The translations under genes and the position numbers were made by a program. The notes under the pieces are model-generated. The model was not told the origin of the DNA and ran no database searches. It saw nothing but the letters and a program-made list of their open reading frames with translations. From Blastocatellia bacterium (GTDB taxonomy: Bacteria; Acidobacteriota; Blastocatellia; UBA7656), in assembly GCA_035575515.1 (NCBI GenBank), contig DATLXU010000091.1, positions 1,638 through 65,637 on the forward strand: a DNA stretch of 64,000 nucleotides, read 5' to 3'. Of this stretch, positions 2,207 to 64,000 are shown piece after piece (the first letter of the stretch is position 1; each line of letters opens with the position of its first letter).

Positions 2207-2278
2207 AGCCGGTGAGGAGACTCGAACTCCTGGTCTACTGATTACAAGTCAGTCGCTTTACCACTAAGCTACACCGGC
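2207..2278 (-). tRNA. tRNA-Thr (anticodon UGU)
   Basis: The reverse complement GCCGGTGTAGCTTAGTGGTAAAGCGACTGACTTGTAATCAGTAGACCAGGAGTTCGAGTCTCCTCACCGGCT folds as a cloverleaf. The acceptor is GCCGGTG/CACCGGC, the anticodon loop is CTTGTAA, and the T-loop is GTTCGAGTC. Confidence 0.9.
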
Positions 2279-14230: not shown

Positions 14231-15298
14231 TCAGGCGGTCAGCCGATCATAGACCTGCTTGACGACTTGGTAGCATTCGCAGGAAGCCGCTTCCAGAGCT
14301 TTTCTATCAAGCACAGTGATAAGACCGCGACGGTATTGAATCAATCCTGCTTGCTGAAGCGAGGCTGCGGCAACGCTCACGCCCGCGCGTCGCGCGCCAA
14401 TCATGTTGGACATTAAATCGTGCGTGAGCAACAGAGTGTCTGATTCGCTGCGGTCGTGCATCATCAACAGCCACCGAACCAATTTTTGCTCTACTGAATG
14501 AAACTGGTTGCAGGCCGCGAGTTGCGAAATCTGCGTCAGCATCCCTTGCGTGTAATCGAGCAAAAAAACCTGCAGTCTGTTTGCGATGCGCGCCCCTTCG
14601 CGCAAGAAAGGCGCTTTGATTCTTAGCGCCGTTCCCGCTTTCTGCACGACTGCGTGATATGGAATCGTCAATGTTTCCGAAAGCACGCGGATGCCGACGA
14701 TGCCTTCGTTGCCAATCATCCCTACGCCTACGGTCGAGCCGTTCTCCAGAATTGAAAAGAGCGACACGATGGCTGTCTCTGGAAAATAGACGTACTGAAA
14801 ATCCTCGTCGTTTTGATAGAGCACCTGCGCAAGGCTGAGCGATACGCGCTCCATGTTCGCGGTCAGGGCTTCGCGCTCCGTTTCCGGCAGCTTTGCGATA
14901 ATTCTGTTTTCTGGAACTGGCGAAGGGCCGGACGAAATCTCTTCTTTCCTGGAAAGCGCGAGAGCTTTTTTAATCAGTTCCTGCGATTTGTTTATCTGAA
15001 GCGCCATCTCTTTCTTGTGGCTGTTAATCAGTCGCATCTGACGACCGAGATTGCGGCGCAGCCTTCGTCGCTGCTCGTCACTTGCCGTAGCATCATCGAG
15101 CTTCTCGGCAATCTCGCGCGCGTTCTTGAACAGCTTGATGATTTCGTTTAAGGCCGTTACGTCAGGCTCAATCTCTTCGAGCGAGTGAGGTCTGATTAGT
15201 ATTGTCGCGAGGCTGTGCAAATGAGCGATGATAAGCTCTTCGAGTCCGCTGATCTCTTTTAAGGCGCGTTTAGGCTGGCTCATCGTTGCTACGCTCAT
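14231..15298 (-). CDS. Crp/Fnr-family transcriptional regulator with ~130-aa N-terminal coiled-coil extension
   Basis: The cNMP-binding-like beta-barrel region is FQYVYFPETAIVSLFSILENGSTVGVGMIGNEGIVG. The C-terminal HTH is LLLTHDLMSNMIGARRAGVSVAAASLQQAGLIQYRRGLITVLD. Confidence 0.8.
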   Translation of the reverse strand: MSVATMSQPKRALKEISGLEELIIAHLHSLATILIRPHSLEEIEPDVTALNEIIKLFKNAREIAEKLDDATASDEQRRRLRRNLGRQMRLINSHKKEMALQINKSQELIKKALALSRKEEISSGPSPVPENRIIAKLPETEREALTANMERVSLSLAQVLYQNDEDFQYVYFPETAIVSLFSILENGSTVGVGMIGNEGIVGIRVLSETLTIPYHAVVQKAGTALRIKAPFLREGARIANRLQVFLLDYTQGMLTQISQLAACNQFHSVEQKLVRWLLMMHDRSESDTLLLTHDLMSNMIGARRAGVSVAAASLQQAGLIQYRRGLITVLDRKALEAASCECYQVVKQVYDRLTA

Positions 15299-58117: not shown

Positions 58118-58595
58118 TCAGGCGGCCAACTTCTCAACCTTCGGCTTCGGCACAATTATATCCAGCCGATCATTTAGCACTGCCACTCGTAATGATACTA
58201 TCTGGTCACATCCTCCATATCCCCATCTCCTCCCGCAGCCATTCGTCCTGTGACCTATTAATCGGCATCCTCCCTCTACTGCTCCACTGCCCAGTGGCAA
58301 TCCCTCCTGCTTGTACTTATTGTAGTCCATCACGTCGAGGCGAGTAGCGATGAAACTTGGCCTTCTTGCCACAGGATTTGCAATCGAGGTAGCTGCCCTG
58401 ATAGCCGCCTGCGAACAGTAGCTTTATCAACCCGGCCATGATTTTGACGGCGAATGCGGCAATCATAATCCAGACGGTCAATTCGATCCAGTAGAAGTTA
58501 ATCTTTGATTTGCCCTGTTTTTCAATCGAGTTATTGAGTTGATTGATAAGATCGTCAGCTAGAGGCAAAATAAGCTCACGGAGTTGATTCTCCAC
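58118..58595 (-). pseudogene. ISKra4-like transposase remnant (internally deleted, frames broken)
   Basis: The C-terminal piece YKQEGLPLGSGAVEGGCRLIGHRTNGCGRRW...VSLRVAVLN resembles the conserved end of ISKra4-family transposases. The upstream piece has the CxxCG zinc-finger segment YLDCKSCGKKAKF. The two overlapping ORFs are in different frames. Confidence 0.55.
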
Positions 58596-58731: not shown

Positions 58732-58804
<73 letters not shown>

Positions 58805-58901
58805 CTTTTAGAATCTGTTATTTAGAGGCAACCAATAAGTTGCCTTTTTCTTTTTGGTGTATCAGCGGTGTGTCAGCCTTCGAGAACAATAAATTCTCAA
58901 G

Positions 58902-59015
58902 CTAATCTGATGCCGCTTTCTGCATAGATGGTAAGACATGCGCGTATGTGTCGAGCGTAAGCGTAATGCTGGCATGGCCTAGCAGCCTGTCGGAGAGAAA
59001 ATCCGCACGGCCTCT
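58902..59015 (-). pseudogene. C-terminal fragment of a tyrosine recombinase (phage-type integrase)
   Basis: Hand translation gives ..GRADFLSDRLLGHASITLTLDTYAHVLPSMQKAASD*, which carries the LGHxSIxxTxDxYxH catalytic-Tyr box. No intact upstream ORF exists. It begins 98 nt after the tRNA-Lys 3' end. Confidence 0.6.
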
Positions 59016-59121
59016 GAAGCACCGTTTTCGAGCAAATTCAGCTTCAATCGAACTTTTTCAGTGGCCTTTTTGGTTCTTTTTATCCTCTTTTTCAGCCTCC
59101 AGACACACTTATCCCAGTATG

Positions 59122-59651
59122 CTATGAAGCCGCTTTACATTGAATGCCAAGCAGGCCAGATTCCATTCTCCTCCTGCTCCCTCTATCCCTCTCAAGGAAA
59201 ACTGTCGAAATCCCCATCACCTCTTTGATTATCCCTATCACTGGCTCTACGGTGCTCTTGCCTAATCGGTAGATTGCCTTGCCTATCCCGGTTCTCAGCT
59301 TCGCGGCCTTCTTCTCTGCGGGCGCTCGCCTCCTCTTCAGGCGGTTGCTCATGCTGAAGGAAAAACCCTTGCCAGCTTCTATGATGCATCTGTCGCCCGG
59401 TTGCTATGTAAGGAGCGACCCCTCTGGCTTCCACTCCTTCTATGTTTGTTGGGCTGAAGTATCCACAGTCGAGTGCCGCTCGCCTCAGGCTTGCCTACTC
59501 GATGGTCTATCGCATCTACTGTTGGCAGGGCTTCCCTCTGATCATTGGCGTGATTTGACAGACTGTTTGATACTACAAGCACGCTCTCCTGATCTACTGC
59601 CACCGGCACGTTGTAATGCTGATCGAATCCGTCATCTGTGCTGTTTTTCAT
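59122..59651 (-). pseudogene. DDE transposase remnant (IS1182/IS5-like C-terminal half, at least two frameshifts)
   Basis: Three overlapping frames read ..YNVPVAVDQESVLVV..ANDQREALP.., ..GVAPYIATGR.. and ..KAIYRLGKSTVEPVIGIIKEVMG.., in the order expected for one DDE transposase. Confidence 0.6.
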
Positions 59652-59848
59652 AATGCCAGACTCCGGGTCGGTGAAGTTATGGCCTCAGTCTCTTTGGCAT
59701 CGTCTAGCGTAAAAGGCGGCGGCTCCAGAGTTTGTGATTGTATCCCGCTATCTGGAAGATCAGCCAAGAAATGGAATAAGTCACTACGATCTTCGGGCGA
59801 GAGTTGTTGAGCGAGCTTCTTTACTTGATCCAAAGATACTTTCGACAT
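59648..59848 (-). CDS. Small ORF resembling an addiction-module antitoxin component, 3' end abutting the IS remnant
   Basis: VSLDQVKKLAQQLSPEDRSDLFHFLADL resembles the N-terminal helix of small antitoxin-type proteins. No partner toxin ORF is visible. Confidence 0.3.
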   Translation of the reverse strand: MSKVSLDQVKKLAQQLSPEDRSDLFHFLADLPDSGIQSQTLEPPPFTLDDAKETEAITSPTRSLAL

Positions 59849-60188
59849 ACTGGCTCCCTGTATCTATCTCTAATATTTCTTTGACTGATCCGGCGCATTG
59901 AGGGACTCGCAGCCCAGCTATCTAAGAGTCACTCCAAAAATGATTCAAACACACGAGAACATACCACAACAGCAGAAACATTAAACAACTGGTTTCCTTG
60001 AGAGTTTAGCCAATAATCATTACAATGCGTCCGGCATCCTCATCAAAGGGAAAGCTGCGAATTATGCCAGTCCGCAAAGCATTGCCATTGCAACTGGCAT
60101 CTGCACGGATTGTTAAGGTTTTGAAAAGTATAGAAAGTGGCCGACGTTGTGTCGCTCACCTTCACGGTTGAAACGTGGAAAAATCTGT

Positions 60189-63100
60189 ATGCCAATAACT
60201 ATAGGTCAAATCGTTAAGAATCTAATTCCCTCCGAGCCGATTATCATTAACCAGATTCGGGAATTAGGCAGAATGGTATCAATCAGCTATACCGGAGTAA
60301 ATTCAAACGTCTCAAGCAACAAAGTAATTCCGCGAGATGAATTTGAAAGATTAGAAGTCTTGACATCGCAAGGGACTTTCAACTTCACAGGCGACCCCAA
60401 GAAATTTTCTCTCTTTGCCGAAGCTGAAAGAATCAATTCGGCTTACCAGTTCGATCCGCTCTTTGCTGTCAATTGCAGCATCGTTGATCCTCTGCCGCAT
60501 CAAGTCGAAGCTGTCTATAAATTTTTGTTGCCACTGCCAAAGATTCGATTTCTATTGGCGGATGATACCGGCGCGGGAAAGACGATTATGACCGGGTTGC
60601 TCCTAAAAGAGTTGATGATGCGCGGGGTCATCGAAAGAATCCTAATCATTACGCCGGGCGGCTTGACCAAGCAATGGCAGGAAGACGAGTTAGGCGTAAA
60701 GTTCAATCTACATTTTACGTTGGTAAATAGAAGTCTCTTCTCAGCAGACCCCAATATATTTCATACGGCAAATCGAATAGTTACTTCTATTGATTTCATC
60801 AGCCGCGAGGACGTGCTTACGGTTGCCGGAAATTCCCACTGGGATTTGATCGTATTCGACGAGGCGCACAAACTCTCCGCTTACGCCTATGGCTCGAAAG
60901 TTTACTTCTCACAGCGATACAAAGCAGCGCAAAAATTATCTCAGCAGTGCGAACACATCCTGCTGCTGACGGCAACACCACATCGCGGGCGACGCGACAC
61001 TTTCAAGATGCTTCTTCAGCTTTTGGACGAAGATATTTTCGCAACCGAAGAGATAGCCAGCGCTCGAATTAAAGAACTCGAACGCAACGGCGTTAATAAA
61101 TTCTTCATTCGCCGGTTGAAAGAGGACATGAAAGATTGGCAGGGCAAGCCGCTCTTCAAAGACCGGTTCACAAAGACAACATCCTATGAACTCACACCCG
61201 AAGAAAAGAATCTCTACGACTCCGTCACCAAGTATTTAACAACCAAGAAGGCTGAAGCTTCACAGTCGAAAAATATCCACGTTTCGCTCGCGCTTGCCGT
61301 AATGCAACGCAGACTGGTCAGCTCAATCTTTGCCATCAAGAATACGCTTGAGCGCAGATGGAATGCCTTGCAGGGGATTCTCGATGAGGTCAATCGGAAT
61401 CCGAATCTCTGGAATCAGCGGCACAAGCTCGAAATCTTCGATATAGACAGCATCGAAGGCTACGATGAGCTGGATGACGAAGAAAGAGACGCGCTCGAAA
61501 ACATCCTATCCGACCCGAAGAAATTCAAGCTCTTTACCACAGCCAAAAGCCCGCAGGAAATACAGGCGGAAGCGCAGGAAGTAAAGCGGCTCTTTCAAAT
61601 GGCCGATGCGCTTTATAAGAGCAACCTTGAAGAGCAGAAGTTCAAAAAGCTCCGCGAGTTGTTGACCTCAGAAAATGTCATCAATGGCGAAAAGCTTGTC
61701 ATCTTCACCGAGCATAAAGACACGCTCTTGTACCTCGAAGAACGCCTCAGGAACACCGGCTATACCATAACAACTATTCACGGCGGGAAGTCTGTTGATG
61801 AGCGCAGGCAGGCGCAATGGGATTTTGCCAAACCGGAGACTCAAATTCTGATTGCCACAGATGCCGCAGGCGAGGGCATCAATTTGCAGTTCTGCCGTTT
61901 GCTCATCAACTGGGACATCCCATGGAACCCCAATCGTCTGGAACAGCGAATGGGGCGCATTCATCGCTATGGGCAAAAGCAGGATGTGCTTGTCTTCAAT
62001 ATGGTCGCTAGCAATACCAAAGAAGGTCAGGTATTGCAGCGACTCCTGCAAAAACTCGACATCATACGCGACAGCATGGGAGATGACCGTGTTTATGATG
62101 TCATTCAGGATGTGCTCGAAGAAGTGCGGCTCGAAGACATAATCAACTCGGTCCTTAACGGGCAGAAAACTTCTCTTGATAGTTTCCTCGAAGATGATGA
62201 GCAACTAAGAATGCGGTTCTCTGAAAAGATTCAATCGCAGAGAGACAAGCTATCTCACAGCACGGTTGACTACCGCGATGCGCGCCAGTTGAAAGAAGAT
62301 TCCGACGAAAAGCGATTGCAGCCCATTTATATTCGCCTGTTTTTCGAGAAGGCTTTCAAGCTTCTCGGAGGCGAGTTCACCGAACTGCGCAAGTCAATCT
62401 ACCGGATTGACAAACTGCCCGATGCCATCGCAGAAACCCTGCGCAAAGACTACAACATCTTTGCCGATGTCATTCGCCAGCTTCTATTCTGTTTCGATAA
62501 GCAGGTCTTCCTCGATTATCAAAATGTCGGCGATCTCGGAAAAGTCCATTACATCAATCCGGGCAATCCGCTCTTTGACGCGGTTATTAAAGTCATCCGC
62601 CAAACTTGCCGCGAAGATATGCTCAAAGGGACAATCCTTGTTTCGCCCGATGACAGTGAGGATTATTTGGCCTTCTTCGTCAAGAGCCAGATTGTGGATA
62701 ATCGTCAGAGCAAGCAGAATGAAAGCATCGCGGATGAGCAGCTTGTTCTGGTCAAGCAGGATAAGACCGGCGCGTTCCAGCAAACATCTGCGGCGAAGTT
62801 CATTGATCTTCATCCTCCGACCGAGTTTGCCAAACTGCTTGAGCCGCCAGATGTGGTCAGTAATGACGAGGTGATTAGCTGGAGCTTCGAGAACATCACA
62901 GAACGGCAGCTTGAAGATACGCACAAACGAGTTCTTGAAGACACGACCAAACGCAAAGAGTATCTTGAAACAGCCTTCACCCATGTCATCGTGGATTTGC
63001 AGTCGCAGATTCAGGACTTACAAGGCCGGGTGCTGCTCGGCGATACCAGCGTGCAGGAAAAGATTCTGAAAAAGCAGGAGCGCATCAATGAGCTTCTGCG

Positions 63101-63611
63101 CAAGAAGCATCAGAGAATCGAAGACCTTGAATTGATGATGCAGGTCGCGCCGAAGCTGCCGGAAGTACTCGGCTGCGCCTATGTCGTGCCGCTCACGCAG
63201 GTAGAGTATCGCGGCCATTACGGGATGAGCCGCGACGACGAGGCAGAAGCTATTGCGATGCAAGTGGCGATGGATTACGAGAGGGCGCAGGGCTGGAAGC
63301 CGCTCGATGTTTCGGCAAACAACGAAGGTTATGATATTCGCAGCGTCAGCCCGGAAGAATTGAAACGCTATATCGAAGTGAAAGGCCGCAGCGGCGCGGA
63401 CGGCTCCGTGATGCTATCGGAAAACGAGATGAACCGGCTGGCGCAGCTTGGCGATTCGGCATGGCTTTACATCGTGACGAATTGTAAGAGCGAGCCGGAG
63501 CTTCACCGCATTCAGAACCCGGCAAACACGCTCAGGTTTGAACAGAAATCGAAAGGCATTCAATTCTTTCTGCCGATGCAGGAATGGAAAGACAAGATCA
63601 AACAATTATGA
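60189..63611 (+). CDS. SNF2-family helicase fused to a C-terminal DUF3883 / restriction-endonuclease-like domain
   Basis: [10 protein letters not shown] (Walker A), VFDEAHKL (motif II), [10 protein letters not shown] (motif III) and the helicase-C block [13 protein letters not shown]...[18 protein letters not shown]. The C-terminus is GYDIRS...YIEVKG...LSENEMNRL...WLYIVTNC. The start is set at the ATG at 60189 (MPITIGQ). Confidence 0.9.
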
Positions 63612-64000
63612 CCCAAGCAAAAAAACTCATCGAAGTGGCGATGCCTATCAAAGAAATCTCGGCTGAGAGCGTTCGCGACAAGTCCATCCGTCACGGGCAT
63701 ATCTCGACCTTGCATCTGTGGTGGGCGCGAAGGCCGCTGCCGGTCTGCCGCGCTGTTGTCTTTGCTTCGCTCGTGCCTGACCCGTTGGATGAAAATTGCC
63801 CGCAAGCGTTTCGTGATGCGGTTGAGTCATTGCTCGGCCCGAAAGCCAATCCGGGCGATCCCTACAAGCCTTATGAAGATGTGCCTTACACAAGCGCAAT
63901 TGATCCGCAGGAAGACAACCTGCGAAACCGTTTGCTTATGTTCATCGGCAAATTCTCTGACGCCTATATCGAAAACGAGAAGAAGGGAAAGCCCACGCCC
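63608..64000 (+). CDS. DUF1156-type (COG1743) DNA methyltransferase, N-terminal 131 codons only (runs off window)
   Basis: Hand translation gives [59 protein letters not shown]... The frame is open to 64000. The ATG overlaps the helicase TGA (ATGA). It is not in the ORF track because it has no stop in the window. Confidence 0.85.

Follow-up and report, generated by a model that had tools for sequence, protein, structure and literature searches.

The window analysed here, a 64,000-nucleotide stretch of contig DATLXU010000091.1 from a Blastocatellia bacterium (assembly GCA_035575515.1), ends in two overlapping plus-strand genes, a helicase-nuclease gene and the beginning of a DNA methyltransferase gene. 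They very probably form the 5' part of an Hma (helicase, methylase, ATPase) defence operon, the Type-1 DUF499-centred system related to bacteriophage exclusion (BREX), carried as cargo of a decayed island at a tRNA-Lys gene. The first gene, hmaA, is an open reading frame (ORF) complete from its ATG at 60189 to its stop at 63611, encoding 1140 amino acids. An alternative TTG start at 60147 would add 14 codons; 83 homologues begin at the position of the ATG, which is preferred. The TGA of hmaA overlaps the ATG of hmaB as ATGA (63608-63611). The two genes and the parts of HmaA lie as follows:

60189..63611, plus strand: hmaA, Swi2/Snf2 helicase-nuclease effector (PADLOC HmaA profile PDLC00659, Pfam domains)
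60189..60368, plus strand: HmaA residues 1-60, predicted five-stranded β-barrel, Tudor/SH3-like (AlphaFold2, predicted local distance difference test [pLDDT] 78-91)
60492..61976, plus strand: HmaA residues 102-596, Swi2/Snf2 ATPase core, motifs Q to VI (motif positions, Pfam, RapA)
62109..63140, plus strand: HmaA residues 641-984, predicted RapA-like C-terminal region (AlphaFold2, Foldseek)
63141..63608, plus strand: HmaA residues 985-1140, predicted PD-(D/E)xK nuclease, NOV_C/DUF3883 (Pfam, Foldseek)
63608..64000, plus strand: first 131 codons of hmaB, DUF1156 N-terminal domain of an N6-adenine methyltransferase, cut at the window end

Profile searches place the first protein in the HmaA family along nearly its whole length: PDLC00659 matches residues 4-1097 (E 1.6e-213; profile positions 8-1131 of 1176). 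Pfam recognises SNF2-rel_dom at 121-387, ResIII, and Helicase_C at 483-595 (E 2e-26), and the helicase motifs occur in order, with Walker A DDTGAGKT at 125-132, DEAH at 224-227, motif III LLLTATP at 258-264, motif V at 553-567, and the last located motif at 586-596. No helicase motif or catalytic residue is degraded, and all are invariant in an alignment of 84 homologues. By sequence, the nearest protein of known structure is RapA (E 2e-38; the match begins at residue 34). The same protein, 100% identical, is encoded in GCA_037024475.1, and public close relatives carry the annotation 'DUF3883 domain-containing protein' or 'helicase-related protein'. The hmaB fragment matches Pfam DUF1156 (E 4e-24) and PADLOC HmaB (E 5e-25). 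PADLOC profiles recognise both genes outright; a call of the three-gene system would also require hmaC, which is missing from the window. An initial annotation, read from the sequence alone, had described a 1140-residue ORF with ordered SNF2 motifs, a DUF3883/PD-(D/E)xK-like C-terminal block, the ATGA overlap and a DUF1156 start over the 131 codons of the second ORF; each of these was borne out, and the profile searches it proposed (SNF2, Helicase_C, DUF3883, and DUF1156) were all positive.

Structure prediction, also proposed there for two regions left unassigned, gave a β-barrel for the first (residues 1-60) and, for the second, a RapA-like stretch that includes a coiled coil. Models were built in AlphaFold2 with alignments of the 84 homologues, and fold searches were run with Foldseek. 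The modelled barrel has strands at 7-10, 18-25, 29-36, 42-48, and 56-60; its fold matches are weak (E of 0.04 or above) and comprise EF-P/eIF5A domain I, the UvrD C-terminal Tudor domain, and CarD, so that the model is consistent with the published 'Tudor' label and is not proof of it. Beyond the ATPase core, residues 641-984 are modelled as a helical part, an α+β domain at about 729-866, and a long coiled-coil hairpin at about 892-984 (mean pLDDT 75 for 641-1140), and the post-core region matches RapA (8spg/6bog) over about 390 columns (E 2e-6 to 3e-6). An 'inactive REase' (restriction endonuclease) domain, which a 2026 study (PMC12839542) places between the Snf2 core and the α+β domain, was not resolved in these searches; Foldseek gave whole-model matches only. 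At the C terminus, Pfam finds NOV_C (PF13020, formerly DUF3883) at 1019-1108 (E 1e-20), and the last ~130 residues match the fold of Hjc (4tkd; E 1.7e-3, template modelling score to target 0.59), with further fold matches to I-Ssp6803I, EcoRV, and the SPARDA nuclease domain. The modelled nuclease core has the order αβββαβ, with D1049 on predicted β2, E1063-V-K1065 on β3, and E1080 on the next helix; these four residues are invariant in the 84-homologue alignment. With its catalytic residues all intact, the C-terminal PD-(D/E)xK nuclease of HmaA is predicted to be active.

The rest of the operon was approached through a second assembly and through relatives. The window is 99.95% identical, with one 1-nt indel, to contig L001 of the metagenome-assembled genome (MAG) GCA_037024475.1, which extends hmaB to codon 444 and then ends, passing S-adenosylmethionine (AdoMet) motif I (DPFTGGG at 229) and CPCC at 414. 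All 444 visible codons are open, and their product is 94% identical to the intact protein of the sister locus L163 (MAG GCA_037024415.1). A look-up of the exact HmaA returned two contigs, both ending inside hmaB; a metagenome scan with the 444-residue HmaB fragment gave no match closer than 85%, and the best match in a genome-collection scan was 85%. Because the strain's own downstream sequence was not recovered, hmaC was not seen in this genome, and we infer it from relatives.

The initial annotation had noted that such methylases typically occur in modules with a helicase and a DUF499-type ATPase, and this arrangement is what follows in relatives. In a set of 50 related loci (62-85% HmaA identity, at least 9.5 kb of downstream sequence), 47 have hmaA, hmaB, and hmaC in that order on one strand. 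The closest full loci, L054 and L003, encode a DUF1156 methyltransferase of about 1010 amino acids and then a DUF499 ATPase recognised by both Pfam (DUF499, E 1e-53) and PADLOC (HmaC, E 5e-148 to about 1e-146); the ATPase of L003 has an N-terminal Swt1-like HEPN domain. L163, 99.05% identical to the window from before tRNA-Lys through hmaA, has the same module with additional genes in the order hmaA, GmrSD, hmaB, DUF1016/YhcG nuclease, and hmaC (HEPN_Swt1 + DUF499); its hmaB (94.6% nucleotide identity to the window copy) and its hmaC are both full-length, and an IS1595 transposase gene follows hmaC.

In these proxies HmaB has DPF.GGG near residue 229, CPCC near 415, and DPPY near 630; DPPY was seen only in the relatives L163, L054, L003, and L164, and motif I also in the L001 extension. 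The spacing from motif I to DPPY suggests a target-recognition insert of about 400 amino acids, and hmaB of the window would be expected to encode about 1000 amino acids with such an insert between the two motifs. The proxy HmaC proteins carry GGGKTH and hhDEL motifs, with RHKIAH in the HEPN domain, and here too hmaB is probably followed by an hmaC for a DUF499 ORC/Cdc6-type AAA+ ATPase with a HEPN N terminus as in L163. Sequence searches found no solved structures for HmaB or HmaC relatives. Directly 3' of hmaC in L054 (19294-20526) are two paired genes, whose products carry HATPase_c/STAS-like and DUF4325 (STAS-like) domains; the product of the first gene weakly matches a segment of the DrmA profile.

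In each of the 48 loci that could be compared (L003-L081), HmaA has diverged less than HmaB or HmaC; mean identities to L054 are 71.5% for HmaA, 60.4% for HmaB, and 57.3% for HmaC. The identity of HmaA stays at 62-85% among MAGs of Acidobacteriota, Bacteroidota, Desulfobacterota, Chloroflexota, and Chlorobi type. The cross-phylum identity of HmaA and its higher conservation point to recent inter-phylum transfer and to quicker change in the specificity and sensor proteins.

The region upstream of hmaA has the features of a decayed island, in agreement with the tRNA-Lys gene, integrase remnant, and insertion sequence (IS) debris that the initial annotation had placed there:

58732..58805, plus strand: tRNA-Lys (anticodon CTT), left boundary of the island (ARAGORN; Rfam RF00005, 69 bits)
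~58902..59057, minus strand: tyrosine recombinase/integrase C-terminal remnant of about 50 codons (by-eye reading, LGH...Y motif)
59122-59352 and 59379-59651, minus strand: two IS1182-family transposase fragments between tRNA and hmaA (NCBIfam NF033551)
58118..58372, minus strand: ISKra4-family transposase C-terminal fragment (NCBIfam NF033572, E 1.1e-15, profile 358-422 of 422)
59998..60026, plus strand: weak sigma-70-like promoter match, TTGAGA-17-TACAAT, 10/12, about 160 nt 5' of hmaA

A terminator-like hairpin follows the tRNA at 58824-58847. The integrase remnant, translated by eye in a minus frame, reads LLGHASITLTLDTYAHVLPSMQ and ends in RADFLSDRLLGHASITLTLDTYAHVLPSMQKAASD before its stop codon, corresponding to box II with the catalytic Tyr. 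The IS1182 fragments match NF033551 with E 3.7e-5 (profile 418-459) and 2.5e-5 (profile 257-312), scores far under the NCBIfam cut-offs, as is expected of fragments. A Pfam scan of the small ORFs upstream gave essentially no matches, apart from a weak one to DDE_Tnp_1_6 in the IS1182 debris, and the IS fragments were visible only with NCBIfam. ISKra4 transposase debris (58118-58595, minus strand) lies on the chromosomal side of the tRNA-Lys gene, between it and an amidohydrolase gene, and mobile-element remnants therefore flank the tRNA on both sides. Between the IS1182 debris and hmaA is a 66-amino-acid ORF (59648-59848, minus strand), also called in Logan contig L002, with no Pfam or NCBIfam match. 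Sigma-70-like sites are no more numerous in the region than in shuffled sequence. Two minus-strand ORFs within hmaA, of 178 (61668-62204) and 166 amino acids (62484-62984), we assume to be shadow ORFs of a conserved coding region. The window holds a second tRNA gene at 2207-2278 (minus strand; Rfam RF00005, 77.5 bits), unrelated to the hma locus.

Base composition also differs modestly in hmaA. Its guanine-plus-cytosine (GC) content is 48.8% (53.9% in the hmaB fragment), against a mean of 55.2% in 3.4-kb windows elsewhere in the stretch (sd 1.6, minimum 52.4%). The dip is real and modest, at about 4 sd, and third-position GC is nearly unchanged (59% vs 63%). The initial annotation was right about the dip and overestimated its size, having put it at about 40% vs about 65%.

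Searches for an att repeat of tRNA-Lys that would mark the right end of the island found none in the window or in L001. In L163, 17 nt at 14260-14276 (GACTCTTAATCAGCGGG) repeat the anticodon stem-loop of tRNA-Lys exactly, 144 nt past the hmaC stop, and a rough estimate of the chance expectation is ~1e-4 per 15-kb locus; downstream of the copy is a terminator-like hairpin and no tRNA 3' half. This copy could be the right end of an island of about 14 kb, and we keep it as a lead and do not accept it as attR. Among the 39 related loci scanned, seven have a tRNA gene within about 6 kb upstream of hmaA. One is L163, at the same tRNA-Lys gene as the window; in the other six (L018, L042, L036, L037, L013, and L003) the tRNA lies 0.3-6 kb upstream and is of a different kind (Pro, Ser, SeC, Met, Asp, Ala/Asn). 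The variety of these upstream tRNAs fits a history in which islands carrying Hma integrated at tRNA genes repeatedly and independently.

The junction of hmaA and hmaB differs between the window and its sister locus. At this junction (63590-63611), where the window has the direct ATGA overlap, L163 (4949-6661) carries a 1.7-kb GmrSD (DUF262/DUF1524) gene, which the window is without. The two hmaA genes diverge in their last ~6 codons, a stop/start overlap is formed anew, and beyond the junction hmaB identity falls to 94.6%. In L163 (4969-5073) the GmrSD frame is interrupted at codon 35 by a TGA that falls within the 'QRPFVW' motif of DUF262, and the gene is probably a pseudogene or the source of an N-terminally truncated protein. 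About half of the related loci, including L006, L009, L010, L012, L018, L023, and L059, have an insert of 1.2-3.6 kb between hmaA and hmaB. At least 10 cassette families occur there, among them GmrSD (12 loci), AbiEi+AbiEii (two types), AAA_21 ATPase+HNH, DUF1016-AAA_21, YhcG nuclease, and AIPR. The junction was already described as a hotspot by Liu et al. 2024. The final residues of HmaA vary with the neighbouring gene, and stop/start overlaps are common whatever gene follows, a pattern that could be taken to mean that the junction is a dedicated cassette-exchange site at which a specific recombination mechanism keeps translational coupling. We consider such a dedicated site very unlikely; the junction may instead be a passive hotspot, with homologous recombination between its conserved flanks. 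As a recent presence/absence pair, the window and L163 could expose the recombination breakpoints.

Hma was proposed in 2021 by the PADLOC authors from 1,638 three-gene operons in 26 phyla (PMC8565338), and a 2026 comparative study in Nucleic Acids Research treats it as the Type-1 DUF499-centred BREX-related (BR) system (PMC12839542). Earlier publications already cover the system and its domain architecture, the HEPN-fused form, the link to integrases, and the defence inserts between its genes. The initial annotation took the locus for a candidate antiphage module, a reading that is supported; the locus is not an unnamed candidate, being the published Hma/Type-1 BR system (PMC8565338, PMC11232893, PMC12839542). 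Nor is mechanistic knowledge as sparse as was then stated, since nickase activity and T4 defence have been shown for HmaA and the sister system MANTIS has been dissected. In work from 2024, the hmaA gene of Halomonas meridiana alone lowers T4 plating in Escherichia coli about 100-fold and is non-toxic, and defence is lost both in a motif VI mutant (R610A) and in a quadruple nuclease mutant (D1084A, E1104A, K1106A, E1121A); with Mn2+, the C-terminal domain on its own nicks supercoiled plasmid (PMC11232893). The window HmaA has counterparts of the mutated residues.

In the scheme proposed for these systems, which resembles restriction-modification (R-M), the methyltransferase marks self, the DUF499 ATPase acts as scanner and scaffold, and the helicase-nuclease restricts (PMC12839542). 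In MANTIS, a Type-2 sister system, a DUF499 ATPase and a small co-activator load the methyltransferase, which hemimethylates asymmetric 6-bp sites and sets specificity; restriction needs all four proteins and is strongest at inverted sites (September 2026 preprint, bioRxiv 10.64898/2026.09.23.753747). By analogy with MANTIS, and from the work on Halomonas HmaA, HmaC would load HmaB onto DNA, and HmaB would methylate host DNA on a single strand of short asymmetric sites. Where such sites on incoming DNA are unmodified, they would recruit HmaA, which would translocate by its Snf2 motor and nick or cut with its C-terminal nuclease. The HmaB and HmaC steps in particular we infer from the sister system.

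Several points weigh against this account. To our knowledge, DNA methylation has been demonstrated for no HmaB. Overexpressed Halomonas HmaB left T4 sensitivity unchanged (PMC11232893), and an hmaA that is protective and non-toxic alone, next to an HmaB without effect, makes a poor fit to simple R-M logic. Hma is without a counterpart of the MANTIS co-activator MtsB, so the transfer of mechanism is by analogy. Moreover, neither hmaC nor the half of hmaB that encodes the catalytic part could be seen for this genome, since the window stops at hmaB codon 131 and the L001 contig at codon 444, and the Tudor assignment of HmaA residues 1-60 depends on weak fold matches.

In a rival reading, HmaA acts essentially by itself, its helicase and nickase functions slowing down the infected cell in the manner of abortive infection (Abi), with HmaB and HmaC dispensable or purely regulatory and no self/non-self methylation. 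The protection by Halomonas hmaA alone, which its authors take as non-canonical Abi, the lack of effect of HmaB overexpression on T4, and the presence of hmaB in only 85% and of hmaC in 81% of hmaA loci (PMC11232893) all favour this view, as does the higher conservation of HmaA relative to both partners in 48 of 48 loci. We nevertheless consider it unlikely: hmaA and hmaB overlap at stop and start here, the triad is kept in 47 of the 50 relatives, and MANTIS restriction requires all components, with the methyltransferase giving specificity. T4 DNA is heavily modified and so is a poor test of protection by adenine methylation, and the T4 result comes from a single heterologous host and a single susceptible phage. 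That the locus is a decaying remnant, its operon perhaps truncated or inactivated past 64000, is less probable still. Around it, the integrase is down to about 50 codons, two IS families survive only as fragments, and all contigs found with this exact hmaA end inside hmaB; in L163, the GmrSD gene has its in-frame stop at codon 35 and an IS1595 transposase gene follows hmaC. Against decay of the operon itself, hmaA is open at full length with every catalytic residue present, the 444 visible hmaB codons are open and 94% identical to an intact protein, and L163 retains full-length hmaB and hmaC, while the contig breaks are explained more simply by strain-level cassette variation at the hotspot.

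We give next to no credence to a third possibility, that the two genes belong to a DISARM (DrmD plus methylase) or Type-3 BREX (BrxHII plus PglXI) system, seen here in part. Its basis is that these helicases are homologous: HmaA also matches the PADLOC profiles DrmD (E 3e-131), BrxHI (E 9e-110), and BrxHII (E 9e-93), and the NCBIfam DISARM_DrmD model at 400 bits. The PADLOC HmaA score is 710 bits vs 437 for DrmD, the HmaA profile also spans the nuclease domain, and the NCBIfam score of 400 for DrmD (NF038317) is under the curated cut-off of 610; the PADLOC DpdE match is likewise much weaker than that of the HmaA profile. The second ORF is a DUF1156 protein of the HmaB type with a negligible PglXI match. 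Pfam domains of DrmA/B/C, PglZ, and BrxA are recorded neither in L163 and L164 nor in three downstream ORFs of L054 and one of L003, a scan that does not cover BrxF, for which there is no domain model.

The locus is one more instance, probably acidobacterial, of a defence system catalogued in thousands of taxa and adds little beyond annotation. Its modest value lies in its being a clean, insert-free example, with hmaA coupled directly to hmaB, beside a near-identical sister locus that bears extra cassettes, a pair useful for studying the swapping of defence genes into the hma operon. It could also provide a minimal operon of the Type-1 BR kind in which to test ATPase-loaded hemimethylation of the MANTIS type in a system without the MtsB co-activator.

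Among known systems, RapA, the RNA-polymerase-associated Swi2/Snf2 ATPase of E. coli, is the closest solved structure to HmaA by sequence, and also by fold after the ATPase core; however, it is a housekeeping transcription factor without a nuclease domain or methyltransferase partner. DrmD of DISARM and BrxHII of Type-3 BREX are homologous Snf2 helicases of methylation-based defence systems. Unlike HmaA, they are without the C-terminal NOV_C nuclease, and their partners DrmA/B/C or PglZ/BrxA/BrxF are absent from the related loci, with BrxF outside the domain scan. DISARM was rejected on the score of 400 bits against 610 for NF038317 and because no DrmA/DrmB (DUF1998) domains are recorded in related loci, and Type-3 BR/Type-3 BREX because the helicase carries a nuclease and no PglZ domain flanks the operon in L163, L164, L054, or L003.

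The Halomonas meridiana Hma locus shares with the window the HmaA Pfam trio of SNF2-rel_dom, Helicase_C, and NOV_C, a DUF1156 HmaB adjoining, and an island context with integrase and IS elements, and the window protein matches the PADLOC HmaA profile at near full length. The four residues of the Halomonas nuclease mutant, D1084, E1104, K1106, and E1121, correspond to D1049, E1063, K1065, and E1080 of the window. In contrast to the direct 4-nt overlap here, a Septu pair separates hmaA and hmaB in Halomonas, and its host is gammaproteobacterial, whereas that of the window is probably acidobacterial. With the Type-1 BR systems (PMC12839542) we find no substantive difference: the helicase has the Swi2/Snf2 core, RapA-like region, and C-terminal PD-(D/E)xK nuclease predicted active, with a modelled N-terminal barrel whose weak fold matches are Tudor/SH3-like, the methyltransferase has a DUF1156 N terminus and, in relatives, a large insert between motif I and DPPY, and the sister locus L163 has a HEPN-fused DUF499 protein.

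MANTIS/Gao_RL (Type-2 BR) has a homologous DUF499 AAA+ ATPase, DUF1156-type N6-methyltransferase, and Swi2/Snf2-type motor-nuclease. Its effector differs in that an N-terminal phospholipase D (PLD)/HKD nuclease replaces the Tudor domain and there is no C-terminal PD-(D/E)xK domain, and it requires the fourth small protein MtsB, which Hma is without; no DUF3780/MtsB gene is called in L163 or L164. Matches of the three NCBIfam Gao_RL 'antiphage' models to the locus are all below cut-off, and membership of the locus in MANTIS was rejected, with no PLD domain found in HmaA by Pfam and a phospholipD_antiphage score of 148 bits against a cut-off of 1100, over the helicase part only. As a source of mechanistic analogy, by contrast with membership, MANTIS is probably the best template for the window locus.

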